From Minisyncoccia bacterium (GTDB taxonomy: Bacteria > Patescibacteriota > Minisyncoccia > Phycocordibacterales > UBA9973), in NCBI GenBank assembly GCA_039809265.1, contig JBDHUR010000003.1, positions 15,274 to 79,273 on the forward strand: a stretch of 64,000 nucleotides of DNA, read 5' to 3'. Below the pieces are notes generated by a model, which was not told the origin of the DNA, searched no databases, and saw nothing but the letters and a program-made list of their open reading frames with translations. This document shows, one piece after another, positions 15,283 to 58,925 of this stretch (its first letter is position 1; each line of letters begins with the position of its first letter). Position numbers and translations under genes: made by a program.

Positions 15283-16344
15283 ATGAAAAAAGAAATTTTT
15301 TATAAACCTGTATTCTTAAAGAATGAAATAGAGCTCAAGAAAATGCTCAAACAAAAACCTTATATAAGTTTTGTTGATGCTTTTAGTGATCAGTTAAAGG
15401 AACTATTTTTTATAGAAAATCATAAATATATAGGAGAAGATAAAAATAAAATTTATTCCAGCGAAGTTTTTAAAAAATATTGTTTTAAAAAAGCAAAAAG
15501 TTTTAAATATGTTTATTATCCATGGAATCACACTATAGTAAAAACTGTTCCAAAAGAAGCATACTGGAAATTAAAGACGAATAGAAATCAAGATCTCATA
15601 ACTATAAACGAACAAAAGAAATTGAAAGATTTCTCTGTAGGGGTTTTTGGTATGAGTGTAGGTAGTAATATAGCTTTTGTGTTAACACAGGCAGGGATTT
15701 CAAATTCAATAACAATAGCAGATTTTGATGAGTTAAGCACTACAAATTTAAATCGTATACTGGCTGGTGTGCATCAAGTTGGTTTAAATAAAACAGTGAT
15801 AGCTGCTCGTAGAATATATGAAGATAATCCATTTGCAAATGTGAAAACTATGCTATCTGGTGTCTCTATAAAAAACTTAGAATCTCTATTAAAAAAAGGA
15901 AAATTGAAATGTATCATAGAGGAAATAGACAATATTCCAATGAAGGTTGAGGTCAGGGTGCTCGCGATGAAGTACAAAATCCCAGTTATAATGATTACCG
16001 ACAATGGAGATGGCGTTGTGTTGCATGTGGAAAGGTATGATAAAAACCTTAAAACTATATTTAATAAACCACTCACATATTGGAAGACATTTTTAGGTGA
16101 TAATATAACTAAGGAAAAAATAGGGAAAATAATTATTGAAGATATTTTTGGGGGAGCTCAAAATGCATCATTAAGAGTTATAGATTCTGTACAGAAAGTT
16201 TTTAATAAAGAAATTATCTCATGGCCACAACTTGGTAGCGCGGCAATTCTTGGTGGCGTTATCAGTACTATAATCATAAAAAAAATTGTTAATAAAGAAG
16301 AAATGCCAAACTCATTTGTTAAACATATACAACATGAATTATGA
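15283..16344 (+). CDS. E1-like / ThiF-MoeB-family adenylyltransferase with ~100 aa N-terminal extension
   Basis: 353 aa; Rossmann VGVFGMSVGSNIAFVLTQAGI, IADFDELSTTNLNRI (ThiF-type DxD...NLNRQ-like). Low-GC sequence. TGA stop overlaps next ATG (ATGA). Confidence 0.7.
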   Translation: MKKEIFYKPVFLKNEIELKKMLKQKPYISFVDAFSDQLKELFFIENHKYIGEDKNKIYSSEVFKKYCFKKAKSFKYVYYPWNHTIVKTVPKEAYWKLKTNRNQDLITINEQKKLKDFSVGVFGMSVGSNIAFVLTQAGISNSITIADFDELSTTNLNRILAGVHQVGLNKTVIAARRIYEDNPFANVKTMLSGVSIKNLESLLKKGKLKCIIEEIDNIPMKVEVRVLAMKYKIPVIMITDNGDGVVLHVERYDKNLKTIFNKPLTYWKTFLGDNITKEKIGKIIIEDIFGGAQNASLRVIDSVQKVFNKEIISWPQLGSAAILGGVISTIIIKKIVNKEEMPNSFVKHIQHEL

Positions 16345-17390
16345 AAATAGATATATCTAAAAATCCAGAGTTTGATAATCACGAATTAGTCTCATGGTTT
16401 GAAGATTCAAGTCTCGGGTTACGTGGATTTATTGTTGTGCATAACACAAACATGGGTCCTGCTGTTGGTGGTACTAGATATTGGATTTATAAAAATGAAA
16501 ATGAAGCTATAACTGATGCTCTAAGATTATCTCGTTCGATGACCTATAAATGTGCTCTTGCAGGTGTGCCATTTGGTGGTGGAAAAGGTGTCATTATTGC
16601 AGATAGTAAGACTGTAAAAACCAAGCAGTTTTTACAGTCTTATGCAAAAAAAGTTTCTCTTCTTGGAGGCAATTTTTATACAGGAGAAGATGTTGGTTTA
16701 ACACTAGAAGATATAAATTGTATGGCTTCTAGTTCTAGATTTATTATTGGCAGTAATAATAAAGCAGGAGATCCTTCTCCGTGGGCTGCGCTAAGTGTTT
16801 TTTATGCAATGAAAGCAGCTCTTTATCAAATATATAAAAATTGTGATTTTTCTAGTAAAAAAATTGCAATTAAAGGTCTAGGTAAAGTTGGTATGGAGTT
16901 GGCGAGATTACTCTATAAAGAAGGTGCTGAATTATTTGTAAGCGACATAGATAAACTAAAGATTAATGAAATTAAATCATGGGGCGATCGAATAAATGTA
17001 GCATCAGTTAAGAATATTCATAAATTAAATGTTGATATTTATGCACCATGCGCAATGGGTGGAGATCTTACTGAAAGAAAAATAAATGAACTTAATTGTA
17101 AAATTATTTGCGGCTCAGCAAACAATCAACTTGAACGTACAGAAAATGCTAATATTTTATATAAACGAAATATTTTATATATTCCAGATTATCTTGCTAA
17201 TTCTGGTGGTTTAATAAATGTTGTTGCAGAACTCGAGACCAAAGGATATAGTAAGGATAAAGTATTTACTAGGGTACAAAAGATTGAAGAAACAACGAGA
17301 AAAGTGCTTGTCATGTCTCTTGAAATGCAGTGCTCTCCAAATGAAGTTGTTAATAAGCTTGCCCAGGATTTATTTATGAAAAATAATTAG
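16341..17390 (+). CDS. Glu/Leu/Phe/Val-dehydrogenase-family amino-acid dehydrogenase (Leu/Phe-dehydrogenase-like)
   Basis: 349 aa; GPAVGGTRYW and GGGKGVI catalytic-domain motifs, GLGKVGMELA NAD(P)-binding glycine motif. Confidence 0.75.
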   Translation: MKIDISKNPEFDNHELVSWFEDSSLGLRGFIVVHNTNMGPAVGGTRYWIYKNENEAITDALRLSRSMTYKCALAGVPFGGGKGVIIADSKTVKTKQFLQSYAKKVSLLGGNFYTGEDVGLTLEDINCMASSSRFIIGSNNKAGDPSPWAALSVFYAMKAALYQIYKNCDFSSKKIAIKGLGKVGMELARLLYKEGAELFVSDIDKLKINEIKSWGDRINVASVKNIHKLNVDIYAPCAMGGDLTERKINELNCKIICGSANNQLERTENANILYKRNILYIPDYLANSGGLINVVAELETKGYSKDKVFTRVQKIEETTRKVLVMSLEMQCSPNEVVNKLAQDLFMKNN

Positions 17391-17391
17391 T

Positions 17392-18867
17392 ATGGATAAA
17401 AAAGTTCAAAAAATTATCAAAGAATATGCTACAAAAAACTCAAATTATTGGAGACGAGTAGCAAAAAAACAAAGAGATAAGACAGTTTTTCTTGCGCAAA
17501 AAGAAAGCTCTGCTTATCGTATAAAATATAAAAAATATCATATAGATAAAAATTTCTGTTTTGAAGATCTGCCTACTGTTGATAAAGCAAATTTTCTTAA
17601 AAAAAATACGATGAATCAACTGCTTTGTGGTGGCCTGAATCAACCTCTTGTTTTTACTTCAACTTCTGGTTCTACTGGTGAGCCATATTATTTTCCTCGC
17701 AAAGAAAACCTGGATTTGCAATATTCTATATTAGTTGAACAATTCTTAAAACAAGGAGAAAACAAAGGAAAGAAACCAGCTCTGGTTTTGATATGTTTTG
17801 GTATGGGAGTATGGATTGGTGGAATAATTACATATCAAGCATTTATGATGGCTTCTCGTCGTGGGAAGTATCCTGTCTCAATACTAACTCCAGGAATAAA
17901 TATGGAAGAAATTCTTAAAGCGTTAAGAAAACTTTCTCCTCAATTTTCTGAAACAATTATTATTGGATATCCTCCTTTTGTAAAAGATATAATTGATCAG
18001 GCTCTATTTAATAATATACCCATAAAACAATTAAATATCCGTTTAATGTTTGCAGCTGAAGTTTTTACAGAAGACTTCAGAGATTATTTAGTAAAAAAAG
18101 TTACAATAAACAATATTTATCGTGATACTCTCAGTGTGTACGGGAGCGCTGATGTCGCAGCTATGGCATGGGAAACAGGAATTTCTGTTTTAATTAAAAG
18201 ACTGTTAAAATCTAAACTAGAAATTTTTAAGTATTTCTTTGGGGAAACTCAAAAAATGCCTACAATTGCTCAATATAATCCTAATTTTATCTATTTTGAA
18301 TCACTTAATAATGAAATTCTTTTAACAGCTGAAAGCGCCATACCACTCGTCCGTTATGCAATAGGTGATAGAGGACGAACTTTCACATATAAAGAAATTG
18401 ATGATGGTTTACGTTTGTTTGGAGTCAATTTAACCAAAGAAGCAAAGAAGGTTGGAATATCGGACATCAATTATCAACTACCATTTGTTTGCATATTTGA
18501 GAGAAATGATTTTTCAACTACTATTTATGGATTACAAATATATCCAGAATTAATACGCGAAGCACTTTCTCAAGAAAAAGTAAGTAATATTCTTACTGGT
18601 AAATTTGTGTTCCAAACAAAATTTGATAAAAACCAAGATCAATATTTAGAAATTAATATTGAATGCGCTGTTAATGTGGATCCATCAACTATTGATGTTG
18701 GATTATTAACTCAGACTATTAGTTCTTTTCTTACAATAAAAAGTTCCGAATTTGCTGAATTAATTAAATACGTTAAAAATAGACCCCTGATACAAATAAT
18801 TCTTTGGACATATGGTCATGATAAGTATTTTAAATTAGGAATTAAACAGAAATGGGTGGTAAAATAA
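17392..18867 (+). CDS. adenylate-forming enzyme, phenylacetate-CoA ligase / coenzyme F390 synthetase (PaaK-like) family
   Basis: 491 aa; P-loop-like FTSTSGSTGEPYYF matching the (S/T)SG(S/T)TGxP motif of PaaK/F390-synthetase-type ANL enzymes. Starts 2 nt after the previous stop. Confidence 0.65.
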   Translation: MDKKVQKIIKEYATKNSNYWRRVAKKQRDKTVFLAQKESSAYRIKYKKYHIDKNFCFEDLPTVDKANFLKKNTMNQLLCGGLNQPLVFTSTSGSTGEPYYFPRKENLDLQYSILVEQFLKQGENKGKKPALVLICFGMGVWIGGIITYQAFMMASRRGKYPVSILTPGINMEEILKALRKLSPQFSETIIIGYPPFVKDIIDQALFNNIPIKQLNIRLMFAAEVFTEDFRDYLVKKVTINNIYRDTLSVYGSADVAAMAWETGISVLIKRLLKSKLEIFKYFFGETQKMPTIAQYNPNFIYFESLNNEILLTAESAIPLVRYAIGDRGRTFTYKEIDDGLRLFGVNLTKEAKKVGISDINYQLPFVCIFERNDFSTTIYGLQIYPELIREALSQEKVSNILTGKFVFQTKFDKNQDQYLEINIECAVNVDPSTIDVGLLTQTISSFLTIKSSEFAELIKYVKNRPLIQIILWTYGHDKYFKLGIKQKWVVK

Positions 18868-18871
18868 GATT

Positions 18872-19933
18872 ATGGAAAATGATTTTATTTTAAAAATTGT
18901 TTCTGCTGGAGGCATGGCTCCGTCTGGAGATAATATGCAGCCATGGAAGACAACATGGGATGGAGAGACGCTCCGTTTGTATTTAGAAAAAAAAGCAGAT
19001 ACTTCTGTTTATAACACAGATGAATGTGGATCTTATATTGCATGTGGCGCTTTTATTGAAAACGTTAGATTGATGGCAGCGTCATTGGGGTATGCAGCAA
19101 ATATTTCTTTTTTTCCTAATACAACAACAGATCCATTTTATATTGCAAATATTATTTTTATTAAAAATACACCTACTGAATTAGAAACTGCTTCTTTTAT
19201 CAACAAAAGACATTCAAACAGAAAAAAATATTTCAAAAAAGAAATACCATCGGAATTAATCTCTATCTTTAATTTAATTGATCCATCTGTTAAAATTATT
19301 ACAGATAAATTTTTAAGAAATACTATCTTTGATATAGCTAGTTTAAATGAATATTTTATCCTACATAATAATCATGTTAGAAATGGTCTTATGAAGACTA
19401 TTCGTTGGAGCTCAAATGAAGAAGAAATTAGTCGTACTGGTTTATTTTTTAAAACACTTGAACTTAATTTAGGTCAATTATTTTTCTTTCGGAGATTTAC
19501 CAAACCTTTTTTTGTTAAAATCTTAAATTTTTTAGGTTTTCCAAAAATTTTACAAAAATCTGCAAAAAATCTATATTCAACATCATCAGCTGTAGGAGCT
19601 ATCACAATTAAAAGTATGAGCCCCCAAGATTTAGTATCTGCAGGTATTGTTATAGAAAAGATTTGGCTTATAGCAACAGAAAAAGGATTAGCTTTCCAGC
19701 CGATAACTGGTATTCCTTATTTGATTTCTGCGATGAATAAAAATTCAAAAATATTTTCTATAAATGAACAAAAATTATTAAAAGATGCTGATTTTTCTTT
19801 AAGGAAAATATTTAAGCTGCCTCCATTAGATCAATTTGGTATGATATTTAGATTAGGTTATGCTAATAAAGCAAGCGCTATTTCTAAAAGGAAATCCATT
19901 CATTCATTTCATGAATTTATAAATAATCTATGA
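18872..19933 (+). CDS. tandem nitroreductase-fold flavoprotein (SagB/McbC-like dehydrogenase or double nitroreductase)
   Basis: 353 aa; N-terminal APSGDNMQPW nitroreductase FMN-site motif. A second RHSNRKY start-of-domain motif at about residue 113. Confidence 0.65.
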   Translation: MENDFILKIVSAGGMAPSGDNMQPWKTTWDGETLRLYLEKKADTSVYNTDECGSYIACGAFIENVRLMAASLGYAANISFFPNTTTDPFYIANIIFIKNTPTELETASFINKRHSNRKKYFKKEIPSELISIFNLIDPSVKIITDKFLRNTIFDIASLNEYFILHNNHVRNGLMKTIRWSSNEEEISRTGLFFKTLELNLGQLFFFRRFTKPFFVKILNFLGFPKILQKSAKNLYSTSSAVGAITIKSMSPQDLVSAGIVIEKIWLIATEKGLAFQPITGIPYLISAMNKNSKIFSINEQKLLKDADFSLRKIFKLPPLDQFGMIFRLGYANKASAISKRKSIHSFHEFINNL

Positions 19934-21567
19934 TTTTTAATCTCGAAATTAACATATCTTTAGTCATCGTTGGTTTAGCAATCGCAATCAGTTTGATACT
20001 TGGTGCTATTGTTTTTTTAAGCAATATTCGGAGCTATACAAACATTGCATTCGCTATCTTTTCTATTCTATCTATTTCCTGGAATGTATTAAATTTTCTT
20101 TTTTATCAACCACATGATAGTACTGCTGTAGCCTTATTACTACTCCGTCTTCAGGTTTTTTTTGCTATCTGGTATTGTTTCGCATTACTGATTCTTTTTT
20201 ATATATTTCCAAAAGAAAAGACTGATATAAAAAAATGGTATAAATTTGGAATATTGCCATTGACTATTATTGTTTCATTTATGACTCTTACACCACTTGT
20301 ATTTAAACAAGTAACAAAACTAGATAGTTTGGGTAGAGTTGCTAGTGTTGAAAATAATTGGGGCGTTATAATTTTTGGAATAACTGTAACTACCATATTA
20401 GGCATAGCTTTTGTTAATCTGGTTAATAAATTCCAAAAATCTTATAAAGAAGAAAAGAAAAAATTAAGTCTGATACTAATAGGAGCAACAACAACTTTTA
20501 TTTTTCATATTATATTTAATATGATATTGCCTAGTTTTTTTGAAATAAGTAAATTTACTGAATTCGGAGCACTTTTTACTTTACCATTTAGTGCGTTAAC
20601 AGCATACGCAATCATAAAATTTAAATTATTTAATGTAAAAGTTGTTTCTGCTGAGTTGTTGGCTTTTATCTTATGGATTTTTATTTTCATTAGAATTTTG
20701 ATAGCAGAAAATCTAAGAGAACAATTCATAAATAGTATTATGTTTGTAGTTGTTGTTATTGTTGGAATTTTCCTTATCCGTTCTGTTTTAAGAGAGGTTG
20801 ATCAACGTGAAAAACTTGCAAAACTAGCAAACGAGCTTGAAACATCTAATGAAAAACTAAAATCTTTAGATACATTAAAAACAGAATTTTTATCATTAGC
20901 ATCTCATCAGTTACGAAGTCCGTTGACCGCAATAAAAGGTTACTCTTCCATGCTTCTAGAGGGCTCTTATGGGGTTTTGGCAGATACTACCCAGCGTGAG
21001 GCGATAGAAAGGATATTCCAATCCAGTACAGCTTTAGCAAAAACTGTAGAAGATTTCTTAAACGTTTCCAAGATAGAACAGGGTGGGATGAAATATGAAT
21101 TTGATGAAATAGATATATCTAAACTTGCAGAAGAGATAGTAAACGAATTGTTAGTATCAGCAGAGTCAAGAGGATTGAAGCTTACTTTCAGTACTATAGA
21201 CAAGGGCCCTTATATTGCTAGAGTTGATGCAAACAAGATACGCCAAGTGTTACTGAACTTTATAGACAACGGCATAAAATATACAAAAGAAGGTTTTGTA
21301 AGCGTGCGTGTAGGTAGAGATAGTGATAGTAAAAAAATAATTTTCTCAGTGGAAGACTCTGGTATGGGCATGACTCCAGAAATAAAATCACAACTTTTCC
21401 AAAAATTTTCTAGAGGTAATGGTGCGAGAATGAATACCGGTGGATCAGGATTAGGGCTTTATCTTGCAAAAGAAATAGTGAGGGCACACAATGGTACTGT
21501 AAATGTAAGCTCTCCTGGGCTTGGCAAAGGATCTACTTTTTATGTGACTCTACCAGCTTTAGGGTAG
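19930..21567 (+). CDS. polytopic membrane sensor histidine kinase (no periplasmic domain; HisKA plus HATPase_c)
   Basis: 545 aa; about 8 TM helices. H-box LASHQLRSPLTAIKGY; N, G1 and G2 boxes (DNGIKY, EDSGMGM, GGSGLGLYLAKEIV). ATGA overlap with the upstream gene. Confidence 0.8.
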   Translation: MIFNLEINISLVIVGLAIAISLILGAIVFLSNIRSYTNIAFAIFSILSISWNVLNFLFYQPHDSTAVALLLLRLQVFFAIWYCFALLILFYIFPKEKTDIKKWYKFGILPLTIIVSFMTLTPLVFKQVTKLDSLGRVASVENNWGVIIFGITVTTILGIAFVNLVNKFQKSYKEEKKKLSLILIGATTTFIFHIIFNMILPSFFEISKFTEFGALFTLPFSALTAYAIIKFKLFNVKVVSAELLAFILWIFIFIRILIAENLREQFINSIMFVVVVIVGIFLIRSVLREVDQREKLAKLANELETSNEKLKSLDTLKTEFLSLASHQLRSPLTAIKGYSSMLLEGSYGVLADTTQREAIERIFQSSTALAKTVEDFLNVSKIEQGGMKYEFDEIDISKLAEEIVNELLVSAESRGLKLTFSTIDKGPYIARVDANKIRQVLLNFIDNGIKYTKEGFVSVRVGRDSDSKKIIFSVEDSGMGMTPEIKSQLFQKFSRGNGARMNTGGSGLGLYLAKEIVRAHNGTVNVSSPGLGKGSTFYVTLPALG

Positions 21568-45704: not shown

Positions 45705-46206
45705 GTATATTTTCTACTCCTTGCTGGTAAGGATATGTGGATGAAACCCTGTACTGCTTGTGGGGCGCAACTTCTTGCTCTTGATTATTTTCTGATTCAG
45801 CATTTTCAGAAATATCTGGAACCTCCCTTTCTATAACACGCACAACTCTCCTCCTGCGAATGCGCGGAGGTGCCGCCTGCTCAGGTGCTTCAGACCCTGC
45901 AGTACCATACATATCAGCAATGTCTGTATTGGGGCGTTGCTCTACAAAAGACTGTGATGTATTGCGCAGCTTGGCCAAGAAGTCTCGTCTTTCCCTATAT
46001 AACAAATATCCTACAGTAAAGATTAAAAGCCCTATAATAGCTAAAACTATTCTCTTCCAGAAAAATGGAACCCCAAAGAATGGAAAGATTGCAGTAAAAA
46101 GTCCTAGTATACAGATGATCCGTTGTTTGAGCATGTTTGTGATGAAAAATAATTTATATAAATGTATTATACACGAAAAATAAGAAAAGCTATGTGAATT
46201 AGGCAT
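45697..46206 (-). CDS. hypothetical membrane protein with Arg-rich linker
   Basis: 169 aa; two N-terminal TM helices, RRRRVVRV tract. No motif recognised. Confidence 0.35.
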   Translation of the reverse strand: MPNSHSFSYFSCIIHLYKLFFITNMLKQRIICILGLFTAIFPFFGVPFFWKRIVLAIIGLLIFTVGYLLYRERRDFLAKLRNTSQSFVEQRPNTDIADMYGTAGSEAPEQAAPPRIRRRRVVRVIEREVPDISENAESENNQEQEVAPHKQYRVSSTYPYQQGVENIHE

Positions 46207-46843
46207 GGACGAAGGCAGAGATGCGCTTTACTTTATGCGAGCGCGGTATTATAATGCCGACAGGGGCAGGTTTTTATCAGAAGACCCTGTGTGGGATGAA
46301 AACCTGTTCCCTTATGGTAACAACAATCCCGCAACTAATATTGATCCGAATGGAGATTGTCCTATTTGTTTGGTTTTAGGTGAAGCTGGGTTTGGTATTG
46401 CAACAGGTTACGGCATTGCGAAACTAACAGGACAAGATTATACTTGGAAAAACGCTGTTGTTGATGGTGCATTAGGTGCTATTACTGCGGGGGCAAGTAT
46501 TTATGCAGGGATAGCTAAGATTGGGGCAAAGGGAGGTATTGCAAGTTCTAGAGCATTAGGTAGAGCAATGGAAGAATCGTTGGGGATGCTTAAATCAAAA
46601 ACTTCTATTAATATCGGAGGTAAAATTAGATTCCCCGATAGATTAACAAATGGATTTTTGGAAGAAGCTAAAAATGTTGCGCATTTAAATTTTACAAGAC
46701 AACTAAAGGATTATTTAAAATATTCTCAGGATAATGGTTTGCAGATGATTTTACATACAAGGGGAAGTACAACTTTCTCCAAAACTCTTCAAAAGCTAAT
46801 TGATGACGGTATTATTATTCATAAAAAAGTGCCTGGGTTTTAA
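46205..46843 (+). CDS. orphan RHS C-terminal tip: RHS core end motif plus Gly-rich hydrophobic linker plus putative PD-(D/E)xK-type toxin domain
   Basis: ALYFMRARYYNADRGRFLSEDPV...YGNNNPATNIDPNG is the canonical RHS core C-terminal motif. Downstream RFPDRL...EEAKN fits PD-x(n)-ExK. No RHS repeat body upstream. Confidence 0.6.
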   Translation: MDEGRDALYFMRARYYNADRGRFLSEDPVWDENLFPYGNNNPATNIDPNGDCPICLVLGEAGFGIATGYGIAKLTGQDYTWKNAVVDGALGAITAGASIYAGIAKIGAKGGIASSRALGRAMEESLGMLKSKTSINIGGKIRFPDRLTNGFLEEAKNVAHLNFTRQLKDYLKYSQDNGLQMILHTRGSTTFSKTLQKLIDDGIIIHKKVPGF

Positions 46844-46856
46844 TATATAAATTTTT

Positions 46857-47453
46857 ATGACTGATTTAAATATTTTAGAAAAACGTTGGGCAGAATTAGC
46901 CAGTAAGCCAAAGTCAAAAGAAGAAATCGAGGAAGTATTGCTACTTGGTAAGAAAATTGAGTTAGAGCGAGCAAAAGAATATAAAGGATTAATTAATGAG
47001 CTTGCAGGTATAGGCATAAATATAACATCAATTTGGGATTTAGTAAATACAAAAGCTAAATATCCCGATGCCATTACATACTTATTAAAATATTTACCAA
47101 TGGTTACTTACGAAAGGAATAAAGAGGGTATAATAAGAGCCTTAACTGTCTCTGAAGCAAAAGGAGTAGCAATTCCAGTTCTTTTAAATGAATATTTAAA
47201 ATTACCTAAAGAAAAGGAAAATTTAAGATGGATAATTGGCAATGCTGTGAATGTAATTGCTACAAAAAATGATGTGGAGACAATAATCCCCATTGTTTTG
47301 GATAAAGAAAATGGGCCATCAAGACAAATGTTCGTATCGGCATTAGGTAAAATAAAAAATGAAAAAATAAAAAATGTGTTACTTCAACTAATTAATGATG
47401 ATGATAAGGTTATTAGGGATGAGGCTCAAAAAGTCTTGAAGAAGTTTAAATAA
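46857..47453 (+). CDS. HEAT/PBS-lyase-like repeat protein, candidate immunity protein
   Basis: 198 aa; repeated helical LxxLxxD..VR..A motifs; immediately downstream of the toxin tip. Confidence 0.5.
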   Translation: MTDLNILEKRWAELASKPKSKEEIEEVLLLGKKIELERAKEYKGLINELAGIGINITSIWDLVNTKAKYPDAITYLLKYLPMVTYERNKEGIIRALTVSEAKGVAIPVLLNEYLKLPKEKENLRWIIGNAVNVIATKNDVETIIPIVLDKENGPSRQMFVSALGKIKNEKIKNVLLQLINDDDKVIRDEAQKVLKKFK

Positions 47454-47482: not shown

Positions 47483-47923
47483 ATGAAAAGAATACCGATA
47501 GTAATGCTTTACTTGCTGACTTCGTTGGGGGCATACAGTCAAGGTAAAAAATCATACTCATATGAGTTTGATAACATACACCGCGTTATCAAAGAATCCT
47601 ACTCACCTGAGTGCAAGTTTATAACCTACACTTACGATAATGACGGAAACCGTTTATTAGAATCTAAAAAATACTTTACGTTTAACGTAAATCAACAAAA
47701 TATAACCTGCCAAAACCCAACAGGCAGCATAATACTAACACCCACCTCAACGGGTGTTTATTCATACCAGTGGAGTAGTGGAGCAACAGGAAACACAGGA
47801 ACTAATTTAACACAAGGGGTAAACACTGTTACTATAACAGAAAGCAACTACAATGGTGCAACCATTACCACAAACTCGCCGCGGATTTTAGATTTGTTTT
47901 CTGCAAAATACCTTTTGACATAG
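47483..47923 (+). pseudogene. RHS/YD-repeat protein N-terminal remnant (signal peptide plus YD repeats), truncated
   Basis: Signal peptide MKRIPIVMLYLLTSLGAYSQG; YSYEFDNIHRV and YTYDNDGNRLL YD-repeat motifs. The ORF runs into the convergent rsmI 3' end. Confidence 0.45.
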
Positions 47924-48531
47924 TCAATATCTCCTTTGACAAATTCTTCATAAAGTTTTGTCATCTCTCTAGCGATCACAACTTCCCTGCCCTTATTCAA
48001 AACTTTTGCAAGCGACTCAAGTGTTTTTTCTATTCTATGCGTAGATTCATAAAAGACAGACACATCCTTTGCTTCGCGAAGCTTTGCAAATATAGTCTCA
48101 CGACCCTTTTTGTGTGGCAAAAATCCAAAGAAATGAAACTCTGCTGTGGATAAACCGGAAGCAGAAAGTGCAGAGACTAGAGCACTAGGTCCTGGAACAG
48201 GAATTACTTTGCACTCTGGTAAATCTCTGTGGACATGTTCCACGAGCAGAACTCCTGGGTCAGAAATGGCAGGTGTGCCAGCATCTGAAACCAAGGATAA
48301 AGTCTTACCTTCCTCAAGCATTTGCAAAATGTCTTTTTCCTTATTCAAAGAGCTATTCGCATGGTAGCTCATGGTTTTGGTTTTTATATCGTAATGATAT
48401 AGAAGTTTCTTTGTAACACGAGTATCTTCACACAGAACAAGATCAGACTCGGCAAGCACGCGAATAGCCCGAAGAGTTATATCCTCCAAGTTGCCTATGG
48501 GTGTTGCTACTATGTATAGTATTCCTGCCAT
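47848..48531 (-). CDS. rsmI: 16S rRNA (cytidine1402-2'-O)-methyltransferase
   Basis: Start trimmed to MAGILYIVATPIGNLEDITLRA. Tetrapyrrole-methylase fold. Confidence 0.85.
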   Translation of the reverse strand: MAGILYIVATPIGNLEDITLRAIRVLAESDLVLCEDTRVTKKLLYHYDIKTKTMSYHANSSLNKEKDILQMLEEGKTLSLVSDAGTPAISDPGVLLVEHVHRDLPECKVIPVPGPSALVSALSASGLSTAEFHFFGFLPHKKGRETIFAKLREAKDVSVFYESTHRIEKTLESLAKVLNKGREVVIAREMTKLYEEFVKGDIDYVKRYFAENKSKIRGEFVVMVAPL

Positions 48532-48583
48532 ATATAAATACGCGTCACGCAAGTGTATTATAACATGTTATAATACATAGAGT

Positions 48584-50515
48584 ATGGACAGATTTTACAG
48601 TATATTTGGCTTTTTAATTTGTTTATTGGCTCTTGGTCTACCAACCAAGAGCTCTGCAGCTGTACCACAGTACGCAAGCTTCCAAAGCTTGCGTCAGTCA
48701 AACGTCATAATTCAATATGGCAACATAGAGAAAAAATATTACTATAACTGTTCTCTTTCTAGCTTCTCTTGCACAAAAAGCACGAATACACCAACAATAA
48801 ACTTTCCATTAAAAGCAAAGACTGGACAGAAGCTTCTTGTGTCTTCAGATGCTTCAAAAGCTATACTTGTGGAAACAAAGAAAAATGGTGCAGGCAATTA
48901 CAACGCTACAGTTTACAAAAATATCTCTGGCAAAGTAGTAAAAGTTGGCACTATCGCCACACCATACTTGCCATATAGCAGTCTGTGGAGTTCTGATTAC
49001 AACAAAGTCGCGCTTTATTCCAAAGATGCAACCTTACCTGCAAACAACATTCGCATTTTCATATTTGATACAGACAAACTTACATCTTTTGGCGAAACTA
49101 CTATAGAAACAAAATATGCCTACTCTTACACTCTTTCCCCGCGCGGAGACACAATTGCTTTTTATGATCCGCCTCGTGACTCAAACAACAAAACTAGGAG
49201 CTTCAACTTTATAGACATTAATAGTGGAAAAACATACAAAATAAACGAACCGCTAGACTATTGGGACTTGGTTTCAGAGCAACCAAGGACTTTCCAATTC
49301 TCTACAGATGGCAAAACTTTGTTTTTCGTAGATGACAAAGACGATCCTATGACTTTATACACTGTTGATATAGACAACACACGGCAAACAGGAGAAATGA
49401 CAGCCGTAAGATTTTTCCCGAATTCTAAAGAACATATTACTGACTTTGCTTTTATAGATGCCAACACTTTGGTGTACATTTCCAACACACCAGATGCTCC
49501 ATACGAATGGGATTTGCGTCTGTATGATATGACAAAAAATACAACAAGTGTCATAACAACAAATGTTGTTTACACTTCACGTATTTTGAAAGAAGGAAAA
49601 TATTTGCTCGTAAATAAAATAGTAAACAACACTGCTGTGCCATATGTCTACAACACCCAAACAAAAGCTGGCAAATATTTCACACAGCTTAAGCCCAGCA
49701 CTACAGCTCTTCCTGGTACCAGAAGTATAGTAGACATAAACGGCATGAAGGGTGTCCTGGTGCAACCTAAGGGCGGCATAACAGCTGATACACCACTTTT
49801 CATCTGGCTGCACGGCGGTCCGTACAGACAAACTTCCTACGGTTACCATCCGTACGGATCCTATGGTGTGTATGACTGGATATTGGATGAAATGGTCAAA
49901 AAGGGTGTGGCGGTACTGAAGCTAGACTACAGAGGCAGCCTGGGCTATGGCAGGATTTATGCTTCGTCTATCAAGAATGAAGTTGGTAAAGGCGATGTGG
50001 CAGATGTAGTACAAGCTGCAACCAAAATCCGCACAGACTACCCTGCCCTCCAAAAAGTTTTCCTTGTAGGCAACAGCTACGGCGGCTATCTAACTTTGAA
50101 ATCGCTAGTGGAAAGACCAGAGACTTTTTCCGGCGGATTCTCTATAAACGGCGTAACAGACTGGGCAGAACTTCTGATACCACTTCGCACTTCTATCTTT
50201 AACACTCATTTCAATGGCTTACCAGACGACAGCAACAAATGGCTATATGACCAAGCATCCATACTCCAGAAGATAAACAACTTACCAAACAACTTGCCCG
50301 TCGTCATAGCTCAAGGTTCAAGCGATAACACCATAAATCCTTCTCAAGCAACCCTGCTTTATAATGCACTCAAAAATACTGGCAAAGATACTGCCATCGT
50401 GCGATACGCGGGTCAAGGACACACATTTAGTGCTGTAAAACCACTGACAGACATCTGCAAGAGGCTTCTCTATATGGCAGGAAAAAGCTCAACAAACGCT
50501 TGCGTATTTAAATAA
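48584..50515 (+). CDS. secreted S9-family peptidase (beta-propeller plus prolyl-oligopeptidase alpha/beta hydrolase domain)
   Basis: 643 aa; signal peptide; C-terminal GNSYGGYLTL nucleophile elbow, downstream Asp/His (SSDNT, GQGHTF). Confidence 0.75.
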   Translation: MDRFYSIFGFLICLLALGLPTKSSAAVPQYASFQSLRQSNVIIQYGNIEKKYYYNCSLSSFSCTKSTNTPTINFPLKAKTGQKLLVSSDASKAILVETKKNGAGNYNATVYKNISGKVVKVGTIATPYLPYSSLWSSDYNKVALYSKDATLPANNIRIFIFDTDKLTSFGETTIETKYAYSYTLSPRGDTIAFYDPPRDSNNKTRSFNFIDINSGKTYKINEPLDYWDLVSEQPRTFQFSTDGKTLFFVDDKDDPMTLYTVDIDNTRQTGEMTAVRFFPNSKEHITDFAFIDANTLVYISNTPDAPYEWDLRLYDMTKNTTSVITTNVVYTSRILKEGKYLLVNKIVNNTAVPYVYNTQTKAGKYFTQLKPSTTALPGTRSIVDINGMKGVLVQPKGGITADTPLFIWLHGGPYRQTSYGYHPYGSYGVYDWILDEMVKKGVAVLKLDYRGSLGYGRIYASSIKNEVGKGDVADVVQAATKIRTDYPALQKVFLVGNSYGGYLTLKSLVERPETFSGGFSINGVTDWAELLIPLRTSIFNTHFNGLPDDSNKWLYDQASILQKINNLPNNLPVVIAQGSSDNTINPSQATLLYNALKNTGKDTAIVRYAGQGHTFSAVKPLTDICKRLLYMAGKSSTNACVFK

Positions 50516-50517
50516 AT

Positions 50518-50550
50518 AAAATCCCCTTGGTTATTCCAGGGGGATTTTTG
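50518..50550. terminator. bidirectional terminator between convergent genes
   Basis: aaatccccttgg-ttatt-ccagggggattt followed by ttgtttt. Confidence 0.5.
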
Positions 50551-50552
50551 TT

Positions 50553-51287
50553 TTACTTCTTCACCTGCATGCCTCTATGATAAACTATCGTGTTTAACAC
50601 CGCGTCCAAATACACATGGTGTGTTTTTGGCAGCCAATGATAAATATGATTTTTTGTAATGTTAAAAGTGCTCCAAGGCCCTTTCGCACAATGCAAGATG
50701 GTTTTACTTATAGAAATACCAAGTCTTTTGTTTAACTCTAAAAAACTGTACTCCATGAGGGAGATATAGAAATCTTGGTCTACATCTACGCATATCACTT
50801 TATTTTGCAGATAGGATGGGAATCTGAACTTATACGTCTCCAGACCGCCATCTTCCGGCATCCTGTAAATCGAACGATCAAAAGATTCATCACCATCTTT
50901 GTTGTAGAAAAAACGAGTTCTTTCTTTAGATAGGTATTCATCAATGCAGGCATATATGGCGTATCCGCAATCAGAAAACACAGGCGGAAATGTCTTTTCG
51001 TATTTATATATCCGAAAGTCTGGGTTTACGAGGCGGGGATCTGTAGCCATAGATTCTACGGCTATCCGGAAGACTATACTTTTACCATCTTTTGTCGGAT
51101 TGCTTATGTTTTCATAAACCTTATAATCTTCTTTCCCCCACAGTGAAGTATTTAGATTTGACATGACGTCATAATATTTCAACTCCATATTGTCGCGATA
51201 GTCACGCGGCTCATTTGAGCTGATCAGTTCTTTGGCAATAAGCACTACCTTGATATCCTCGGTGTGACTTTCAAGTTTCTGTACCAT
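50553..51287 (-). CDS. hypothetical protein
   Basis: 244 aa ORF with a DVDQD (DxD-like) segment. No confident family assignment. Confidence 0.4.
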   Translation of the reverse strand: MVQKLESHTEDIKVVLIAKELISSNEPRDYRDNMELKYYDVMSNLNTSLWGKEDYKVYENISNPTKDGKSIVFRIAVESMATDPRLVNPDFRIYKYEKTFPPVFSDCGYAIYACIDEYLSKERTRFFYNKDGDESFDRSIYRMPEDGGLETYKFRFPSYLQNKVICVDVDQDFYISLMEYSFLELNKRLGISISKTILHCAKGPWSTFNITKNHIYHWLPKTHHVYLDAVLNTIVYHRGMQVKK

Positions 51288-51343: not shown

Positions 51344-51784
51344 TTACTTATATTTCTTGGTTCGCCACTTGTCAGCTATTTTAACCTTGTTTAGAGAGCG
51401 CTCAAGCTCTGCTTCAAAGTGCTCAAAATCCACGTCCTGAGCGTTTTTACGCTCTTTAGAGAGCTTTTCTGCCTTAACTCTAGCTTCCTCTATGCTTTTC
51501 TCTATATCCCCAACGTGCTCGGCATAGTCTGCTAGCACTGCTACCTCAGTAACACCATCCACTTTTTTTACTTCCACAAACCCTCCATCCAAAGCAAACG
51601 GCACAGGCTCGTCTGTAGCACCAGCCACAATATCGCCAGAAGTCAGAGATGCAACTAGCGGAATATGATCCGGCAAGACAGTTATAATACCTTCTTTTGT
51701 AGGTAAAGTTACTTGGCTGACATTTTCTTCAAATACCAGCTTTTCCGGAGTAACTATTTTGAGTTTTAGAAATTTATTTGACAT
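51344..51784 (-). CDS. atpC: F-type ATP synthase epsilon subunit
   Basis: 146 aa; LKIVTPEKLVFEENVSQVTLPTKEGIITVLPDHIPL. Confidence 0.85.
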   Translation of the reverse strand: MSNKFLKLKIVTPEKLVFEENVSQVTLPTKEGIITVLPDHIPLVASLTSGDIVAGATDEPVPFALDGGFVEVKKVDGVTEVAVLADYAEHVGDIEKSIEEARVKAEKLSKERKNAQDVDFEHFEAELERSLNKVKIADKWRTKKYK

Positions 51785-51785
51785 A

Positions 51786-53439
<1,654 letters not shown>

Positions 53440-53443
53440 AAAT

Positions 53444-54349
53444 TTAACTCACTGAAGCCATACCAGCCGAGATTTCCGAAATTTCTTGCGTGATGCCGGC
53501 TTGGCGGGCTTTGTTAAATACTAATGTCAGATCTCCAATCATATCTGCCGCGGCGTCGCTTGCGTTCTTCATTGCGATCATTCGTGCCGACTGTTCACTC
53601 GCGCTTGATTCAAGGATCATCTGATACATTTGCATTCTGACAATCTTTACGACCATGTCTTTCATCACTTCTTCGTAGTTCGGTTCAAAGACATACTGTG
53701 TTCCTGTTTTGCTTTCTGAAATATTTTTATTTTCTACTGTAGAGAGCGCTTCTTCAATCCCTTTCTTAACTTCCTCTTTCGATACCGGCAAAAGTTTTCG
53801 TATCTTTGGTATCTGCGTAAGTCCGGAAACGTAGTCGGTGAATGCAACATGGATTTCGTCATACTTTCCTGATGCGTACAAATCTGTAACAAGTCTTGCT
53901 GCCGAGAGCGTGTCGAACAGTTTTGGATTCTCCGGCATTTCAGTAAACGAAGCGATGACTTCTTTCCCAAGCCGTCGCAGCATAGCGTCGCCTTTCTTCC
54001 CTACTGTTACGAAAGAAAGTTCGTCGTTCGGGTGAGTTCGCATTTGCGCGATTACTTTTCGCATAATCTGCGCGTTGTAGGAGCCGCATAGTCCGCGGTT
54101 GGAAGTAATAAGCACGGTCAATTTTTTATTTCCATTTCGTTCCTTCAAAAGTTCATGAGTTGTTTCATCCACATACTGAGACAAAGAAGTCAGAACTTCC
54201 CAAGAATATCCGGCGTACACGCGAGAAGCAACCGTCATACCGACGGCTTTCTTCATCTTGGCAGCAGCAACAAGCTCCATCGCCTTGGTGATTTTCTTTG
54301 TGTTCTTTATGGACGTAATACGTCGTTTGATTTCTTTTGTGGATGCCAT
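53444..54349 (-). CDS. atpG: F-type ATP synthase gamma subunit
   Basis: 301 aa; MASTKEIKRRITSIKNTKKITKAMELVAAAKM. Confidence 0.9.
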   Translation of the reverse strand: MASTKEIKRRITSIKNTKKITKAMELVAAAKMKKAVGMTVASRVYAGYSWEVLTSLSQYVDETTHELLKERNGNKKLTVLITSNRGLCGSYNAQIMRKVIAQMRTHPNDELSFVTVGKKGDAMLRRLGKEVIASFTEMPENPKLFDTLSAARLVTDLYASGKYDEIHVAFTDYVSGLTQIPKIRKLLPVSKEEVKKGIEEALSTVENKNISESKTGTQYVFEPNYEEVMKDMVVKIVRMQMYQMILESSASEQSARMIAMKNASDAAADMIGDLTLVFNKARQAGITQEISEISAGMASVS

Positions 54350-54353
54350 TTAA

Positions 54354-54695
54354 TTAATCTAAACTTTCGTAAGAAATGATATCTTTTAGTCTTTCAGGAA
54401 ATTCTGAAGGTTCTGGCAATACAATATCTTGATCTTCAATTTTTATTGGTTTTGTAAAATCCAAAAAGTGCATGAAAAATACTACGCGATGAGGGAACGC
54501 ATTTGGTTTATTTACAACCTCACTTCCAGTTTCATTTAGAAACTGATCATCATATGGTGCCTGCCAATCAAGCCTTGGTACACCTTCAACTTCTTGAGTT
54601 ATTTCATCAAAATTTAAAGCTTTGTCTGAAGTAAGCTCTATAAGATGAACATCTGGATTATTTTCTACTTTATACACACCAATTATATTGATCAT
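54354..54695 (-). CDS. small AT-rich hypothetical protein inserted between atpA and atpG
   Basis: 113 aa ORF, 6 nt after the atpA stop and 4 nt before the atpG start. Low GC relative to neighbours. Confidence 0.4.
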   Translation of the reverse strand: MINIIGVYKVENNPDVHLIELTSDKALNFDEITQEVEGVPRLDWQAPYDDQFLNETGSEVVNKPNAFPHRVVFFMHFLDFTKPIKIEDQDIVLPEPSEFPERLKDIISYESLD

Positions 54696-54701
54696 AAAAT
54701 T

Positions 54702-56210
54702 TTATTTATTGAACACCGTCTTATATTCCTCAATAATTTTCTTAAGTTCTGCTTCTCCTTCATCTGTCCACATTTTTGCTTCGCGGACTTCTGACATGAA
54801 CTGCTTTGCGTTCTGTTCTCCGTATTTGATCAAGCCCGTTTCAAATTCTCGAATCTTGTCGATCGCAATGTCGTCCACAAGTCCGCGAGTAAGCGCATAC
54901 ATGGAGACAACTTGGTGTTCCACACTCATCGGAGAATATTGTCCTTGCTTCAAAAGTTCCACTGCTCGGCGTCCTCGGTCAAGCTGCTTTCGAGTTCCTT
55001 CGTCCAAATCTGAACCGAACTGTGTAAAGGCTTCAAGTTCTCGAAACTGCGCAAGATCGAGCTTCAATGTTCCAGCAACTTTTTTCATCGCTTTGATCTG
55101 AGCAGAAGATCCCACGCGAGACACAGAGTTACCAACGTTTACTGCAGGACGAATACCTTTGTAGAACAAATCTGTTTCCAAGAAAATCTGTCCGTCAGTG
55201 ATAGAAATAACGTTTGTCGGAATGTAAGCAGAAATATCTCCGGCCTGAGTTTCAATGATTGGAAGCGCTGTAATAGAACCTCCACCGAATTCTTTGTTCT
55301 TTCGGCAAGCGCGTTCAAGCAAGCGTGAGTGCAAGTAGAACACATCTCCAGGGTAAGCTTCGCGGCCTGGTGGACGTCGAAGAAGAAGAGAAATTTCTCG
55401 GTAAGCAACAGCATGCTTTGAAAGATCATCGTAGATGATGAGCACGTCTTCACCTTTGTCCATGAAATATTCTGCGATAGACACACCAGTATAAGGCGCA
55501 ATATAAGAAAGCGCAGCCGGTTCTGAAGCGCCGGCAGAGACAATGACTGTGTAGTCCATAGCGCCAGCTTCGCGCAAGCGTGTCTCTATCTTTCTGAGTT
55601 TTGAATCTTTCTGACCGATGGAAACGTAGACGCATTTCATATTTTGACCCTTCTGGTTCAATATCGTGTCTATAGCAATAGCAGTCTTACCAGTTTGTCT
55701 GTCACCAATGATAAGTTCACGCTGACCTCGACCTATCGGGATAAGCGCATCTATAGCTTTTATACCTGTCTGTACCGGCTGGTCCACAGACTGTCTAGTG
55801 ATCACACCAGAAGCCACGCGTTCTATAGGGTAATTTGTTTTTGATTCTATAGTGCCAGCGCCATCTATTGGAGCGCCAAGAGCGTCTACCACACGGCCTA
55901 TCATCGCCTCACCAACAGGCACAGAAAGTATTTTACCTGTACGCTTTACACCTTGACCTTCTTTCAGGTGGGTATAATCTCCAAGCACAATAGCACCGAT
56001 AGCATCTTCCTCAAGGTTAAGTGCCACCCCCATACCGCCAGCATCAAACGCCACCATTTCTGAAGATTGGCATTGTGAAAGACCGGAAATTTTTACAATT
56101 CCGTCTGAAACAGACACAATAGTTCCGACTTCATATATTTCTGGAGTCGCATCAAACTCTTGGATCTTTTGTTTTAAATTGTTGATGAGTGCTTCTGCTT
56201 GTGTTTTCAT
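54702..56210 (-). CDS. atpA: F-type ATP synthase alpha subunit
   Basis: 502 aa; GDRQTGKT Walker A, conserved alpha sequence. Confidence 0.95.
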
Positions 56211-56212
56211 AT

Positions 56213-56593
56213 TTAGTGTGTAAGTGATTCTTGTAATAAGACTAGTTGTTTTTTTAAACTTGCATCATACTCTAGCCCTTTATATGTAGCGATGAATCCT
56301 CCGATCAGTGTTTCATCTATCTCTACTTCTACATCTTTACCGCTTGCATTCATTTTCTCTGTTATCCCTGATACAGTATTCTTACTTATTTCAAAAGGTG
56401 TACGGATGCGGACTTGTTCATTTCTTGACTTCATCTCAACCAATCGTTCTAAATGACGCAATATGTCTGGAAGTCTGTTCTCCATCTTGTGCGAGGTAAC
56501 AAATTTCATAAAGTCTTTTGTTACTTGCTCTCCAGTTCTACCGTCTTCAAGCATGGACAAAAGTGTATGTGCGATGTTCTTTGATGCATCCAT
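56213..56593 (-). CDS. atpH: F-type ATP synthase delta (OSCP) subunit, short form
   Basis: 126 aa; C-terminal IDETLIGGF delta motif. Position between atpF and atpA. Confidence 0.7.
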
Positions 56594-57084
56594 TATTTGG
56601 CAAGAATTTCTTTGATAATCTTTTCGCTTTTTTCACCAGTCATTGTATTTTTCAATATCTTCTCTACAGACATAACCACAGCCTTTGCGGTCTCTGTATT
56701 CAGCTCTTTTATCATGCTTTCACGCTCCTTATCCACCATAGCTCGGCCATTCTCAAGTATTCCCTGTTTTTCTTTCTCTGCATCTACCTGTGCTTGTGCG
56801 ACTATACCCTTTCCGTCCTCTTCTGCTTTAGTTAAAGTATCTACCGCTTTCATACGAGCTTCCTTTTCTATTTCTTTTTTAGTTTCTTCGGCTTCTGACA
56901 AAGCAACTTTTGACTTCTCTGCATTCTCTAATCCAGTCGTGATATCTGTGTGTCTGTCACGGATCACCTTACGAAGTGGTTTTATAGCTATGAAGTAAAG
57001 TATCACAAACACCAACGCAAAGTTGAATATCTGCGCTAGCATGAGTTTCCAATCTATATGAAATGTTGCTATTAAATCGTTCAT
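56593..57084 (-). CDS. atpF: F-type ATP synthase subunit b
   Basis: 163 aa; N-terminal TM then a long charged helix. Confidence 0.8.
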   Translation of the reverse strand: MNDLIATFHIDWKLMLAQIFNFALVFVILYFIAIKPLRKVIRDRHTDITTGLENAEKSKVALSEAEETKKEIEKEARMKAVDTLTKAEEDGKGIVAQAQVDAEKEKQGILENGRAMVDKERESMIKELNTETAKAVVMSVEKILKNTMTGEKSEKIIKEILAK

Positions 57085-57158
57085 TGAAAAATTTTATACT
57101 TATAATACTGCCCTGAACACAATGCAGATGATAGGCTTCCGCATTGAGGTTCAAAACA

Positions 57159-57452
<294 letters not shown>

Positions 57453-57483
57453 TCAACCACATGTGCCACAAGTCAAAAAGTTT

Positions 57484-58386
57484 TTAGCTGTGTGCTACAG
57501 ACCGAGCATGTGCGTCATGCGATTCGTCATGAGCATCATGATCCTGTGAAGCTATAGTAAAGTAGACCACTGTCAAAAGAGAAAAGATGAGGGCTTGGAT
57601 GAGTCCGACAAAAACTTCGAGCAACAGAAATGGTGCCGGAACAACGTACGCAACAAGCGCGCTCATGGACGCAAGCAAGACTTCGCCGGCAAACACGTTC
57701 CCAAAAAGACGAAAAGAAAGCGAAGCAACTTTTGCTATTTCTCCTATAGCTTCAAGCACACCTACAAAGAACGAGATTGGTGCCACCACAAGGATGGTCG
57801 GCTCGCGCCGTACTTTGGTAAAGATGTACCCAAGCGCTTTAAGATTAACATATTTGTTAAAGGTTTTCCATAGACCAATTGACACTATACCAAATATATT
57901 GGCTCCTATAACAGAAAAAAGTCCGAGCGCAAGAGTAGTATTTACATCGGCAGTGCCCCCGCGGAAAAGCGCCACAAATGTCTCATGTCCGTCTTTTATC
58001 TCATTGAATCCGATAGAACCTACGCCGGGTAGAATTCCCAGCCAGTTGTTGAATAGCATAAAGAAGAAAATAGATATTGCTAGCGGGAAAATTTTCTCTG
58101 AAAGCTTGCGGTCATTGGTAACTTGGTCACAAACAGATAACGCACCTTCTACTACTATTTCAAAAATATGCTGCATTTTGCTCGGTATTTTAGAAAGCTT
58201 GAGGCGCAAAACAACAGAGACAAGCACAACGAGAGCAAGCGCTAGCCAACTGGTAAGCATAGAATTTGTCACAGGTATTCCACCATCAGACGGCCCAATA
58301 TGAAAAACCTCTTCGGCAAAGAGTGTATGAGCGTGGTGGGAGTTTTCTGTTGTTTGTGTTTCTGTATGAATGTTTTCAGTATGCAT
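57484..58386 (-). CDS. atpB: F-type ATP synthase subunit a
   Basis: 300 aa; LSFRLFGNVFAGE conserved Arg-containing helix. Confidence 0.85.
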   Translation of the reverse strand: MHTENIHTETQTTENSHHAHTLFAEEVFHIGPSDGGIPVTNSMLTSWLALALVVLVSVVLRLKLSKIPSKMQHIFEIVVEGALSVCDQVTNDRKLSEKIFPLAISIFFFMLFNNWLGILPGVGSIGFNEIKDGHETFVALFRGGTADVNTTLALGLFSVIGANIFGIVSIGLWKTFNKYVNLKALGYIFTKVRREPTILVVAPISFFVGVLEAIGEIAKVASLSFRLFGNVFAGEVLLASMSALVAYVVPAPFLLLEVFVGLIQALIFSLLTVVYFTIASQDHDAHDESHDAHARSVAHS

Positions 58387-58388
58387 AG

Positions 58389-58634
58389 CTATTTATCGTT
58401 GGTTGTTTCAAAGTTGTTGCGGTAAATCTTTATCTCTTTATATATGCCATAAATAGTGGCGGCAAAGCAGACAGCAAGGATAATGAAAAACACTGCATTG
58501 CTGGCATGTGTAAAATGCTTTACCAGAAACGCTACAGCCACAGGCCCTAGTATCCAGCTGGTTGTCTTGGCATAGAACATAAGCGCTGGCTTGTACCAGC
58601 TTTCCCCTGCCTGCTTTTTCCCATCTGTATCCAT
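58389..58634 (-). CDS. small membrane protein at head of atp operon (AtpZ/AtpI-like, putative)
   Basis: 81 aa, two TM helices, immediately upstream of atpB. Confidence 0.4.
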   Translation of the reverse strand: MDTDGKKQAGESWYKPALMFYAKTTSWILGPVAVAFLVKHFTHASNAVFFIILAVCFAATIYGIYKEIKIYRNNFETTNDK

Positions 58635-58853: not shown

Positions 58854-58925
58854 TGAGTGTGGAAGGAATCGGACCTTCGACCTCTGTCTTATCAGGACAG
58901 CGTTCTACCACTGAACTACACACTC
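58854..58925 (-). tRNA. tRNA-Ile (anticodon GAT)
   Basis: Hand-folded cloverleaf: acceptor GAGTGTG/CACACTC, D-arm GTTC-AGTGGTA-GAAC, anticodon stem CTGTC/GACAG with loop CTGATAA, T-arm GAAGG-TCCGATT-CCTTC, discriminator A. No encoded CCA. Confidence 0.7.

Follow-up and report, generated by a model that had tools for sequence, protein, structure and literature searches.

The F-type ATP synthase operon of one uncultured Patescibacteria (CPR) species is interrupted between atpA and atpG by a small gene of foreign composition, here called ORF113. It is a real gene and a lineage-specific insertion; it shows zero diversity among strains, and its homologues elsewhere have no linkage to atp genes. 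All positions given below are those of the window, by which we mean the whole stretch of 64,000 nt of DNA that was analyzed. Judging from the sequence, we consider it very probable that ORF113 is a foreign cassette expressed from the operon. An immunity-type function of its product is proposed more tentatively, as an idea that falls somewhat short of probable. To the complete reading, a promoterless foreign cassette that is served by read-through and coupled translation and is probably immunity-like, we would give an even chance.

The operon is a complete F-type operon on the minus strand and reads atpI-like, atpB, atpE, atpF, atpH, atpA, ORF113, atpG, ORF95, atpD and atpC (Table 1). An earlier note on this DNA had placed a reading frame of 113 residues between atpA and atpG, with gaps of 6 and 4 nt, and both the coordinates and the junctions confirm this: the window reads TAA-AATTTT-ATG from atpA to ORF113 and TAA-TTAA-ATG from ORF113 to atpG. 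A second inserted reading frame, ORF95, had been missed. As a side observation, the atpH product matches the OSCP model at positions 56-172 of 172 only, so that the N-terminal third of the model is missing; the versions in the relatives L010 and L011 have 136 residues.

Table 1. Positions of the atp operon, its two inserts and related features in the window
Feature	Position	Strand	Remarks
atp operon with both inserts	51344..58634	minus	no internal minus-strand terminator-like site
atpI-like	58389-58634	minus	
atpH (F1 delta)	56213-56593	minus	short, 126 aa; OSCP match 4.9e-14
atpA (F1 alpha)	54702-56210	minus	upstream neighbour of ORF113
Upstream junction AATTTT	54696..54701	minus	atpA stop to ORF113 start
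ORF113	54354-54695	minus	113 aa, ATG start, TAA stop
Downstream junction TTAA	54350..54353	minus	ORF113 stop to atpG start
SNP-free tract, window vs L001-type strains	54141..54713	minus	573 nt; ORF113 and first ~210 nt of atpG
atpG (F1 gamma)	53444-54349	minus	downstream neighbour of ORF113
ORF95	53152-53439	minus	95 aa, between atpG and atpD
atpD	51786-53150	minus	
atpC	51344-51784	minus	

The composition of ORF113 is foreign relative to the flanking atp genes. Its GC content is 0.32 and its GC3 0.18, compared with 0.45 and 0.38 for atpA and 0.44 and 0.47 for atpG; the elevated AT content noticed earlier is thus borne out, and the low GC3 argues for a recent arrival. The protein is indeed acidic, as had been stated (pI 4.34; 23 D+E vs 9 K+R), and contains three His and no Cys residues.

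ORF113 is a genuine gene of a widespread and so far undescribed family. Its first homologues were four proteins with 41-50% identity (E values from 1e-16 to 1e-23). When the resulting five-member profile was used to search 1.84 billion representatives, it collected 675 clusters (at 50% identity) with E≤1e-3 and 363 proteins with E≤1e-10. Family members are mostly 110-130 aa long, and an alignment of 86 of them gives the signature IGVY.V..VHLIE...FTQE...WQ.PYDE..L..G...R..FFFH.LD..PL.TPFG..LP...P.RL..I.YE.P. All the invariant positions of the five-member alignment (A1) are present in ORF113. Structure prediction had been proposed in the earlier note; from that alignment AlphaFold2 produced a very confident all-beta model (pLDDT 96.3, pTM 0.88). 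The homologues, the 675 clusters and the confident model together mean that ORF113 is not a chance reading frame in a spacer, a case which the earlier note had considered. A lipoprotein signal or membrane anchors occur in some members, and in one there is a fusion to a DKNYY domain.

None of the described families accounts for ORF113. It has no match at E≤1 in Pfam or NCBIfam (the atpH product was matched to OSCP in the same scans), and PHROGs, PADLOC, PDB and BFVD yielded no match either. The 86 aligned family members likewise match nothing in the family libraries (Pfam, NCBIfam, PHROGs and PADLOC), and described immunity families were assigned to 0 of the 86 in Pfam (E≤0.1) or NCBIfam (E≤0.01). 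The sole PDB profile match, carboxyspermidine dehydrogenase, was rejected, its E value of 0.78 being at chance level; accordingly, the spermine synthase gene that adjoins one homologue (L096) was given no meaning. The window and 80 related atp loci contain no extra copies of the ORF113 or ORF95 families. Metagenome pattern scans for ORF113 and ORF95 were saturated by chance matches and recovered no relatives.

Comparison with other atp loci identifies ORF113 as a lineage-specific insertion. The best GTDB matches of the window atpG come from two Patescibacteria MAGs, L010 (56% identity) and L011 ('Minisyncoccia bacterium', 54%). Both lack ORF113; their atpA and atpG are separated by 6-15 nt, and atpG and atpD by ~35 nt. 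Across 80 atp loci of other species (these two and 78 further ones) the estimated gaps range from -14 to 88 nt for atpA-atpG and from 8 to 125 nt for atpG-atpD. The corresponding intervals in the window, 352 and 293 nt, are exceptional because nothing in the 80 loci approaches them. The insertion suspected in the earlier note is therefore upheld by the operon architecture, the insert being absent from all 80 loci. The same comparison disposes of the opposite case considered there, a conserved lineage-specific atp subunit of normal composition, since the gene is absent from relatives and its composition is foreign. No earlier account of a gene inserted at the atpA-atpG junction turned up in the literature searches.

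In the reading that we prefer, ORF113 was horizontally acquired as a promoterless gene, which would have landed exactly in the stop-to-start junction of atpA and atpG. A terminator lies upstream of atpI at 58733-58705, and the minus strand shows no terminator-like site from there (58705) to 50550, a span that takes in the end of ORF244, the 244-aa reading frame downstream of atpC. Native junctions in the operon measure -1 to 2 nt, and those of ORF113 are just as tight. These observations support the earlier suggestion that the gene is contained in the operon transcript. Because no internal terminator-like site is present and the junctions are tight, ORF113 would be expressed through read-through of the atp transcript, with its translation coupled to that of atpA either across the 6-nt gap or through an ATGA overlap, depending on the strain. 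The overlap is seen in L001-type strains, where a 2-nt indel results in an atpA of 506 aa whose TGA stop overlaps the ATG of ORF113. Translation may then be passed on to atpG over the 4-nt gap, and the location in the atp operon would provide ORF113 with strong constitutive expression. No terminal inverted or direct repeats and no attC-like site border either insert (scattered short repeats occur at chance level only), and junctions of 4-6 nt leave no room for an attC site. Rfam elements are likewise absent apart from one tRNA upstream of the operon. This tRNA gene (RF00005, 72.8 bits; 58854-58925, minus strand) is located just upstream of the atp genes and is flanked by two terminator-like hairpins.

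As an AT-rich small reading frame set between two conserved genes without disturbing them, ORF113 resembles phage morons and promoterless cassettes. Morons, however, usually have their own promoter and terminator and reside in prophages, whereas ORF113 has no signals of its own, no phage context and no phage homologues.

At least 23 contigs from several samples carry the exact ORF113 protein, in each case with an intact frame and in the order atpA-ORF113-atpG. Across six strain contigs compared with the window, all of them metagenome-assembled and thus possibly consensus chimeras, ORF113 shows 0 differences in 342 positions. Its flanks behave differently: relative to the L001 type, atpA differs at 84 of 1509 and atpG at 55 of 906 positions (5.6-6.1%), and atpD at up to 66 of 1365. 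The differences in the flanks are mostly silent (71 synonymous vs 12 non-synonymous codons in atpA, 36 vs 8 in atpG). At the synonymous density of the flanks ~14 differences would be expected in ORF113, and none is observed. The SNP-free tract of 573 nt that covers the gene is the longest such run in a 2.9-kb stretch holding 148 SNPs. The common ancestor of the ORF113 copies thus appears to be much younger than that of the flanks, a pattern that fits a recent spread by homologous recombination. The cassette may have passed through the strains lately in this way, with the conserved atp genes serving as homology arms.

The wider pattern of variation is patchy. Among the six strain contigs (L001-L006), atpA, atpG and atpD (51786-56350) show patches of 5-15% divergence, mostly synonymous, and the first 300 nt of atpD alone hold ~44 differences. 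In the F0 genes and the upstream region, 0-1 differences were counted. The divergent patches look as if they arose by recombination with diverged lineages, the F1 genes being the centre of exchange. SNP patches occur elsewhere too, one example being the peptidase gene at 48.5-49.6 kb, and the population is therefore generally mosaic.

Identity of ORF113 across strains with divergent flanks, a site between conserved essential genes and a neighbour, ORF95, that is polymorphic for presence and absence are also what a self-propagating free-standing gene of the homing type, targeting the atpA-atpG junction, might leave behind. Free-standing homing endonuclease genes of the T4 seg/mob type share with the two inserts an intergenic position between conserved genes, presence or absence by strain (for ORF95) and mosaic flanks. 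Yet ORF113 has no motif of, or family match to, GIY-YIG, HNH, LAGLIDADG, His-Cys box or PD-(D/E)xK nucleases and, with its 113 residues, 0 Cys and 3 His, is too small for the known types of homing endonucleases. Its homologues occupy unrelated sites, terminal repeats were not found, and the all-beta model has no PDB neighbours. We regard this explanation as disfavoured and give it hardly any weight.

To the question raised earlier, whether homologues are always linked to atp genes, the answer is negative: in nine other genomic contexts of the family, none adjoins atp genes. Several homologues (L007, L008, L009 and the P0004 contig) lie on short contigs among unrelated neighbours, one of them beside a Fic gene. 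Another (L090) belongs to a row of small genes that all point in one direction, among them Imm8, two NUDIX genes and one GNAT, and a further one (L091/L092) lies within an array of small genes of no known function, DUF4279 included. In a Clostridia genome (L093-95) the family gene stands alone between genes for an MgsA-type AAA ATPase and an M20 peptidase; in an Anaerolineales genome (L096/L097) it directly follows the spermine synthase gene; and on a human-gut contig (L102/L103) it is again stand-alone. Finally, one member (P0162; L099-101) resides on a conjugative element, between a VirB4/CHAP-lysozyme (CHAP-hydrolase) block and an SNF2 helicase. In several cases the GC content of the family gene is below that of its locus (0.34 vs 0.53 in L099, 0.49 vs 0.61 in L093). 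An all-against-all BLAST of the neighbours from seven loci and the window revealed no shared partner gene. Because of these varied contexts, the anchored and fused variants and the GC content below that of the surroundings, we conclude that the family behaves as a mobile accessory protein.

The locus on the conjugative element is of particular relevance to function. There the family gene P0162 begins 10 nt downstream of a 207-aa ORF opening with MFAYCGNNPVVNYDPDG. This segment aligns to the end of the Rhs-associated core model TIGR03696 (positions 60-75 of 76), with an E value of 0.15 that is below threshold because the aligned stretch is so short. A glycine-zipper membrane segment and a His-rich C-terminal domain follow, the latter without a match to any toxin model. 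The 207-aa ORF is toxin-like in build, and its position just ahead of the family gene is that expected of an orphan toxin C-terminal module and its immunity gene. On visual inspection its C-terminal part (NHH...HRG..H) recalls the xHH group of HNH nuclease toxins, a lead without model support. The 207-aa ORF and the 657-aa SNF2 helicase also share the N-terminal start MFAYC(G/L)NNPV, with the family gene lying between them (L099, 4367-7660); the repeated start looks like a recombination handle for cassette swapping.

These features bring the family close to the orphan immunity genes of polymorphic toxin systems (Rhs, CdiA or LXG type), which are found in acquired interbacterial defence islands. 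Like them, ORF113 is small, acidic, mobile and without an enzyme motif; one homologue directly follows an orphan Rhs-C-terminal-like module, and others are members of one-directional small-gene arrays with Imm8 and DUF4279. The differences are that ORF113 falls outside the described Imm families and that it stands single inside an essential operon rather than in an island with a recombinase, with no cognate toxin adjacent. Immunity-type binding is thus the best supported guess for the role of the family, and in our preferred reading the ORF113 product would be an orphan immunity-type protein that binds and neutralizes an incoming toxin and is no part of the ATP synthase.

The organism itself carries a comparable module. 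On the plus strand at 46205-47453 the window encodes an orphan module with a 212-aa ORF that combines an Rhs-associated core end (TIGR03696, E 1e-10) with a Tox-REase-7 nuclease domain (E 1e-12), followed by an AT-rich 198-aa HEAT-repeat ORF, which is likely the immunity gene of this module. Polymorphic-toxin conflict is therefore part of the biology of the organism. Hosts have been reported to defend themselves against Patescibacteria by means of secreted Esx effectors (PMC13622651). This makes for a plausible ecological setting for the immunity reading. Several facts count against that reading. The family (86 members) matches no described immunity family, and the toxin-adjacent position was found for the P0162 locus type alone and neither in the window, where no toxin gene lies beside ORF113, nor in the other contexts. 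Moreover, several homologues stand alone amid housekeeping genes.

The conjugative element could also be taken to indicate that the family is anti-defence or conjugation-associated cargo of mobile elements, for instance an inhibitor of a recipient defence system. The placement of P0162 between the VirB4/CHAP-hydrolase block and the helicase, the small acidic product and the frequent compositional foreignness of family genes at their loci would all suit such cargo. Set against this, the family has no match in 50,697 phage records, 72,556 plasmid records or IMG/VR, PADLOC and PHROG matches are absent, and the contexts are mostly chromosomal. We therefore consider an anti-defence role quite improbable.

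ORF113 may instead have no host function at all. In that case it would be a neutral passenger that was carried along by a recombination tract or a sweep and became locked in, since only an exact deletion would preserve the coupling of atpA and atpG. Consistent with this, its foreign composition has not yet drifted toward that of the host, no partner gene is found nearby, and its companion ORF95 can be dispensed with, since some strains have it and others do not. The zero diversity of ORF113 in the species also means that selection on the protein is not assessable there. However, the frame is intact on every contig read (n=23), the protein keeps all the conserved residues of the family, and the strong conservation of the family across 675 clusters implies that the protein has a function somewhere. 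Taken together, we find a neutral passenger unlikely, though less so than the other alternatives to the reading of an expressed, probably immunity-like cassette.

ORF95 has the same general appearance of an AT-rich cassette (GC 0.28, GC3 0.14; gaps of 4 and 1 nt), with a basic product (pI 8.8). The window, L003 and L006 carry it, whereas L001, L002, L004 and L005 lack it and have a 21-nt spacer between atpG and atpD. Its structure model is of moderate quality (pLDDT 70.6), and the fold matches are not significant. The only relative found, P0007, is 55% identical to it when aligned and 52% identical by BLASTP, and is located 4 nt after atpF in another organism (L098, 382-651). Its junctions are of the same type as those of ORF95 in the window, with TAA-ATTT-ATG upstream and AAAAATAA-T-ATG downstream. 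Two members at two different atp junctions suggest more than chance, though the sample is tiny, and ORF95 may represent a small, atp-operon-specific family. An unidentified reading frame has reportedly been seen between the gamma and beta genes of Rhodopseudomonas blastica, the same junction as that occupied by ORF95; our literature searches found no paper on it.

The earlier note had offered two functions for ORF113, an ATP-synthase accessory or inhibitor-like protein and a passenger gene, and of these the passenger fits better. Were ORF113 a co-opted accessory or regulator, it would bind F1, at alpha, gamma or the short delta for instance, and modulate assembly or hydrolysis. The gene is fixed at its site on all contigs of the species and apparently coupled in translation to both neighbours, the N-terminal third of the OSCP model is missing from the delta subunit, and the atp linkage of the ORF95 family in two organisms suggests that small proteins can be taken up into atp operons. 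In its species, ORF113 was found in the atp operon only, on all the contigs read, which leaves room for a local link to the ATP synthase. On the other hand, homologues are atp-linked in 0 of 9 other contexts, the gene is missing from the closest relatives, which share the short delta, and ORF113 resembles no ATP-synthase family or known inhibitor. Known ATP synthase inhibitors (the epsilon C-terminal domain, zeta, IF1 and AtpTheta) work through helical segments, whereas the ORF113 model is all-beta. We accordingly rate this role as rather improbable. Extra genes and small regulators of atp operons (atpI, atpR and atpQ of N-ATPases, alphaproteobacterial zeta, cyanobacterial AtpTheta and mitochondrial IF1) are comparable in being small and non-core and in lying in or beside the operon, but ORF113 has no sequence or fold similarity to them, is all-beta rather than helical and belongs to a family that is not atp-linked elsewhere. 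A broader idea would unite both inserts: F1 stop-to-start junctions might act as landing pads, and the captured ORF113, an F1-binding beta protein of former immunity function, together with the atp-dedicated rare family of ORF95 might form a new class of lineage-specific ATP-synthase modulators in ultra-small episymbionts. We consider this speculative and quite unlikely to be correct.

The architecture of the operon is unusual and the family is undescribed, while the kind of event, horizontal gain of a small accessory gene, is already known. If the reading of a probably immunity-like cassette is true, a genome-reduced episymbiont can express a protective foreign gene strongly and constitutively without having to acquire a promoter, through a coupled junction of an essential operon, and an undescribed all-beta family (~675 clusters at 50% identity, no PDB neighbour) joins the candidates for interbacterial conflict. 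In that case the strain mosaic would further suggest that conserved housekeeping genes can act as homology arms that spread such cassettes. If the accessory reading were true instead, this would point to small ATP synthase regulators in Patescibacteria that have so far escaped notice.

Two other regions of the window may be mentioned. Downstream of atpC and in the same direction lies ORF244 (244 aa, 50553-51287), without a family match; together with a peptidase S9 gene in the opposite orientation (48584-50515) it separates atpC from a TP_methylase gene (47848-48552). That ORF244 is the counterpart of the genes that follow atpC in relatives was ruled out, as these are unrelated; one of them aligned with an RsmI-like sequence. 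Because this RsmI-like-aligning gene lies much closer behind atpC in L010, the block at 48584-51287 may be an insertion too. The second region is an AT-rich island of five genes on the plus strand (15283-21567; GC 0.28-0.32, GC3 0.16-0.23), which codes for a ThiF-family protein, a Glu/Leu/Phe/Val-dehydrogenase-like protein, a 491-aa protein of no assigned function, a nitroreductase-family protein and a 7TM histidine kinase. The pairing of ThiF and nitroreductase is reminiscent of peptide-modification clusters.
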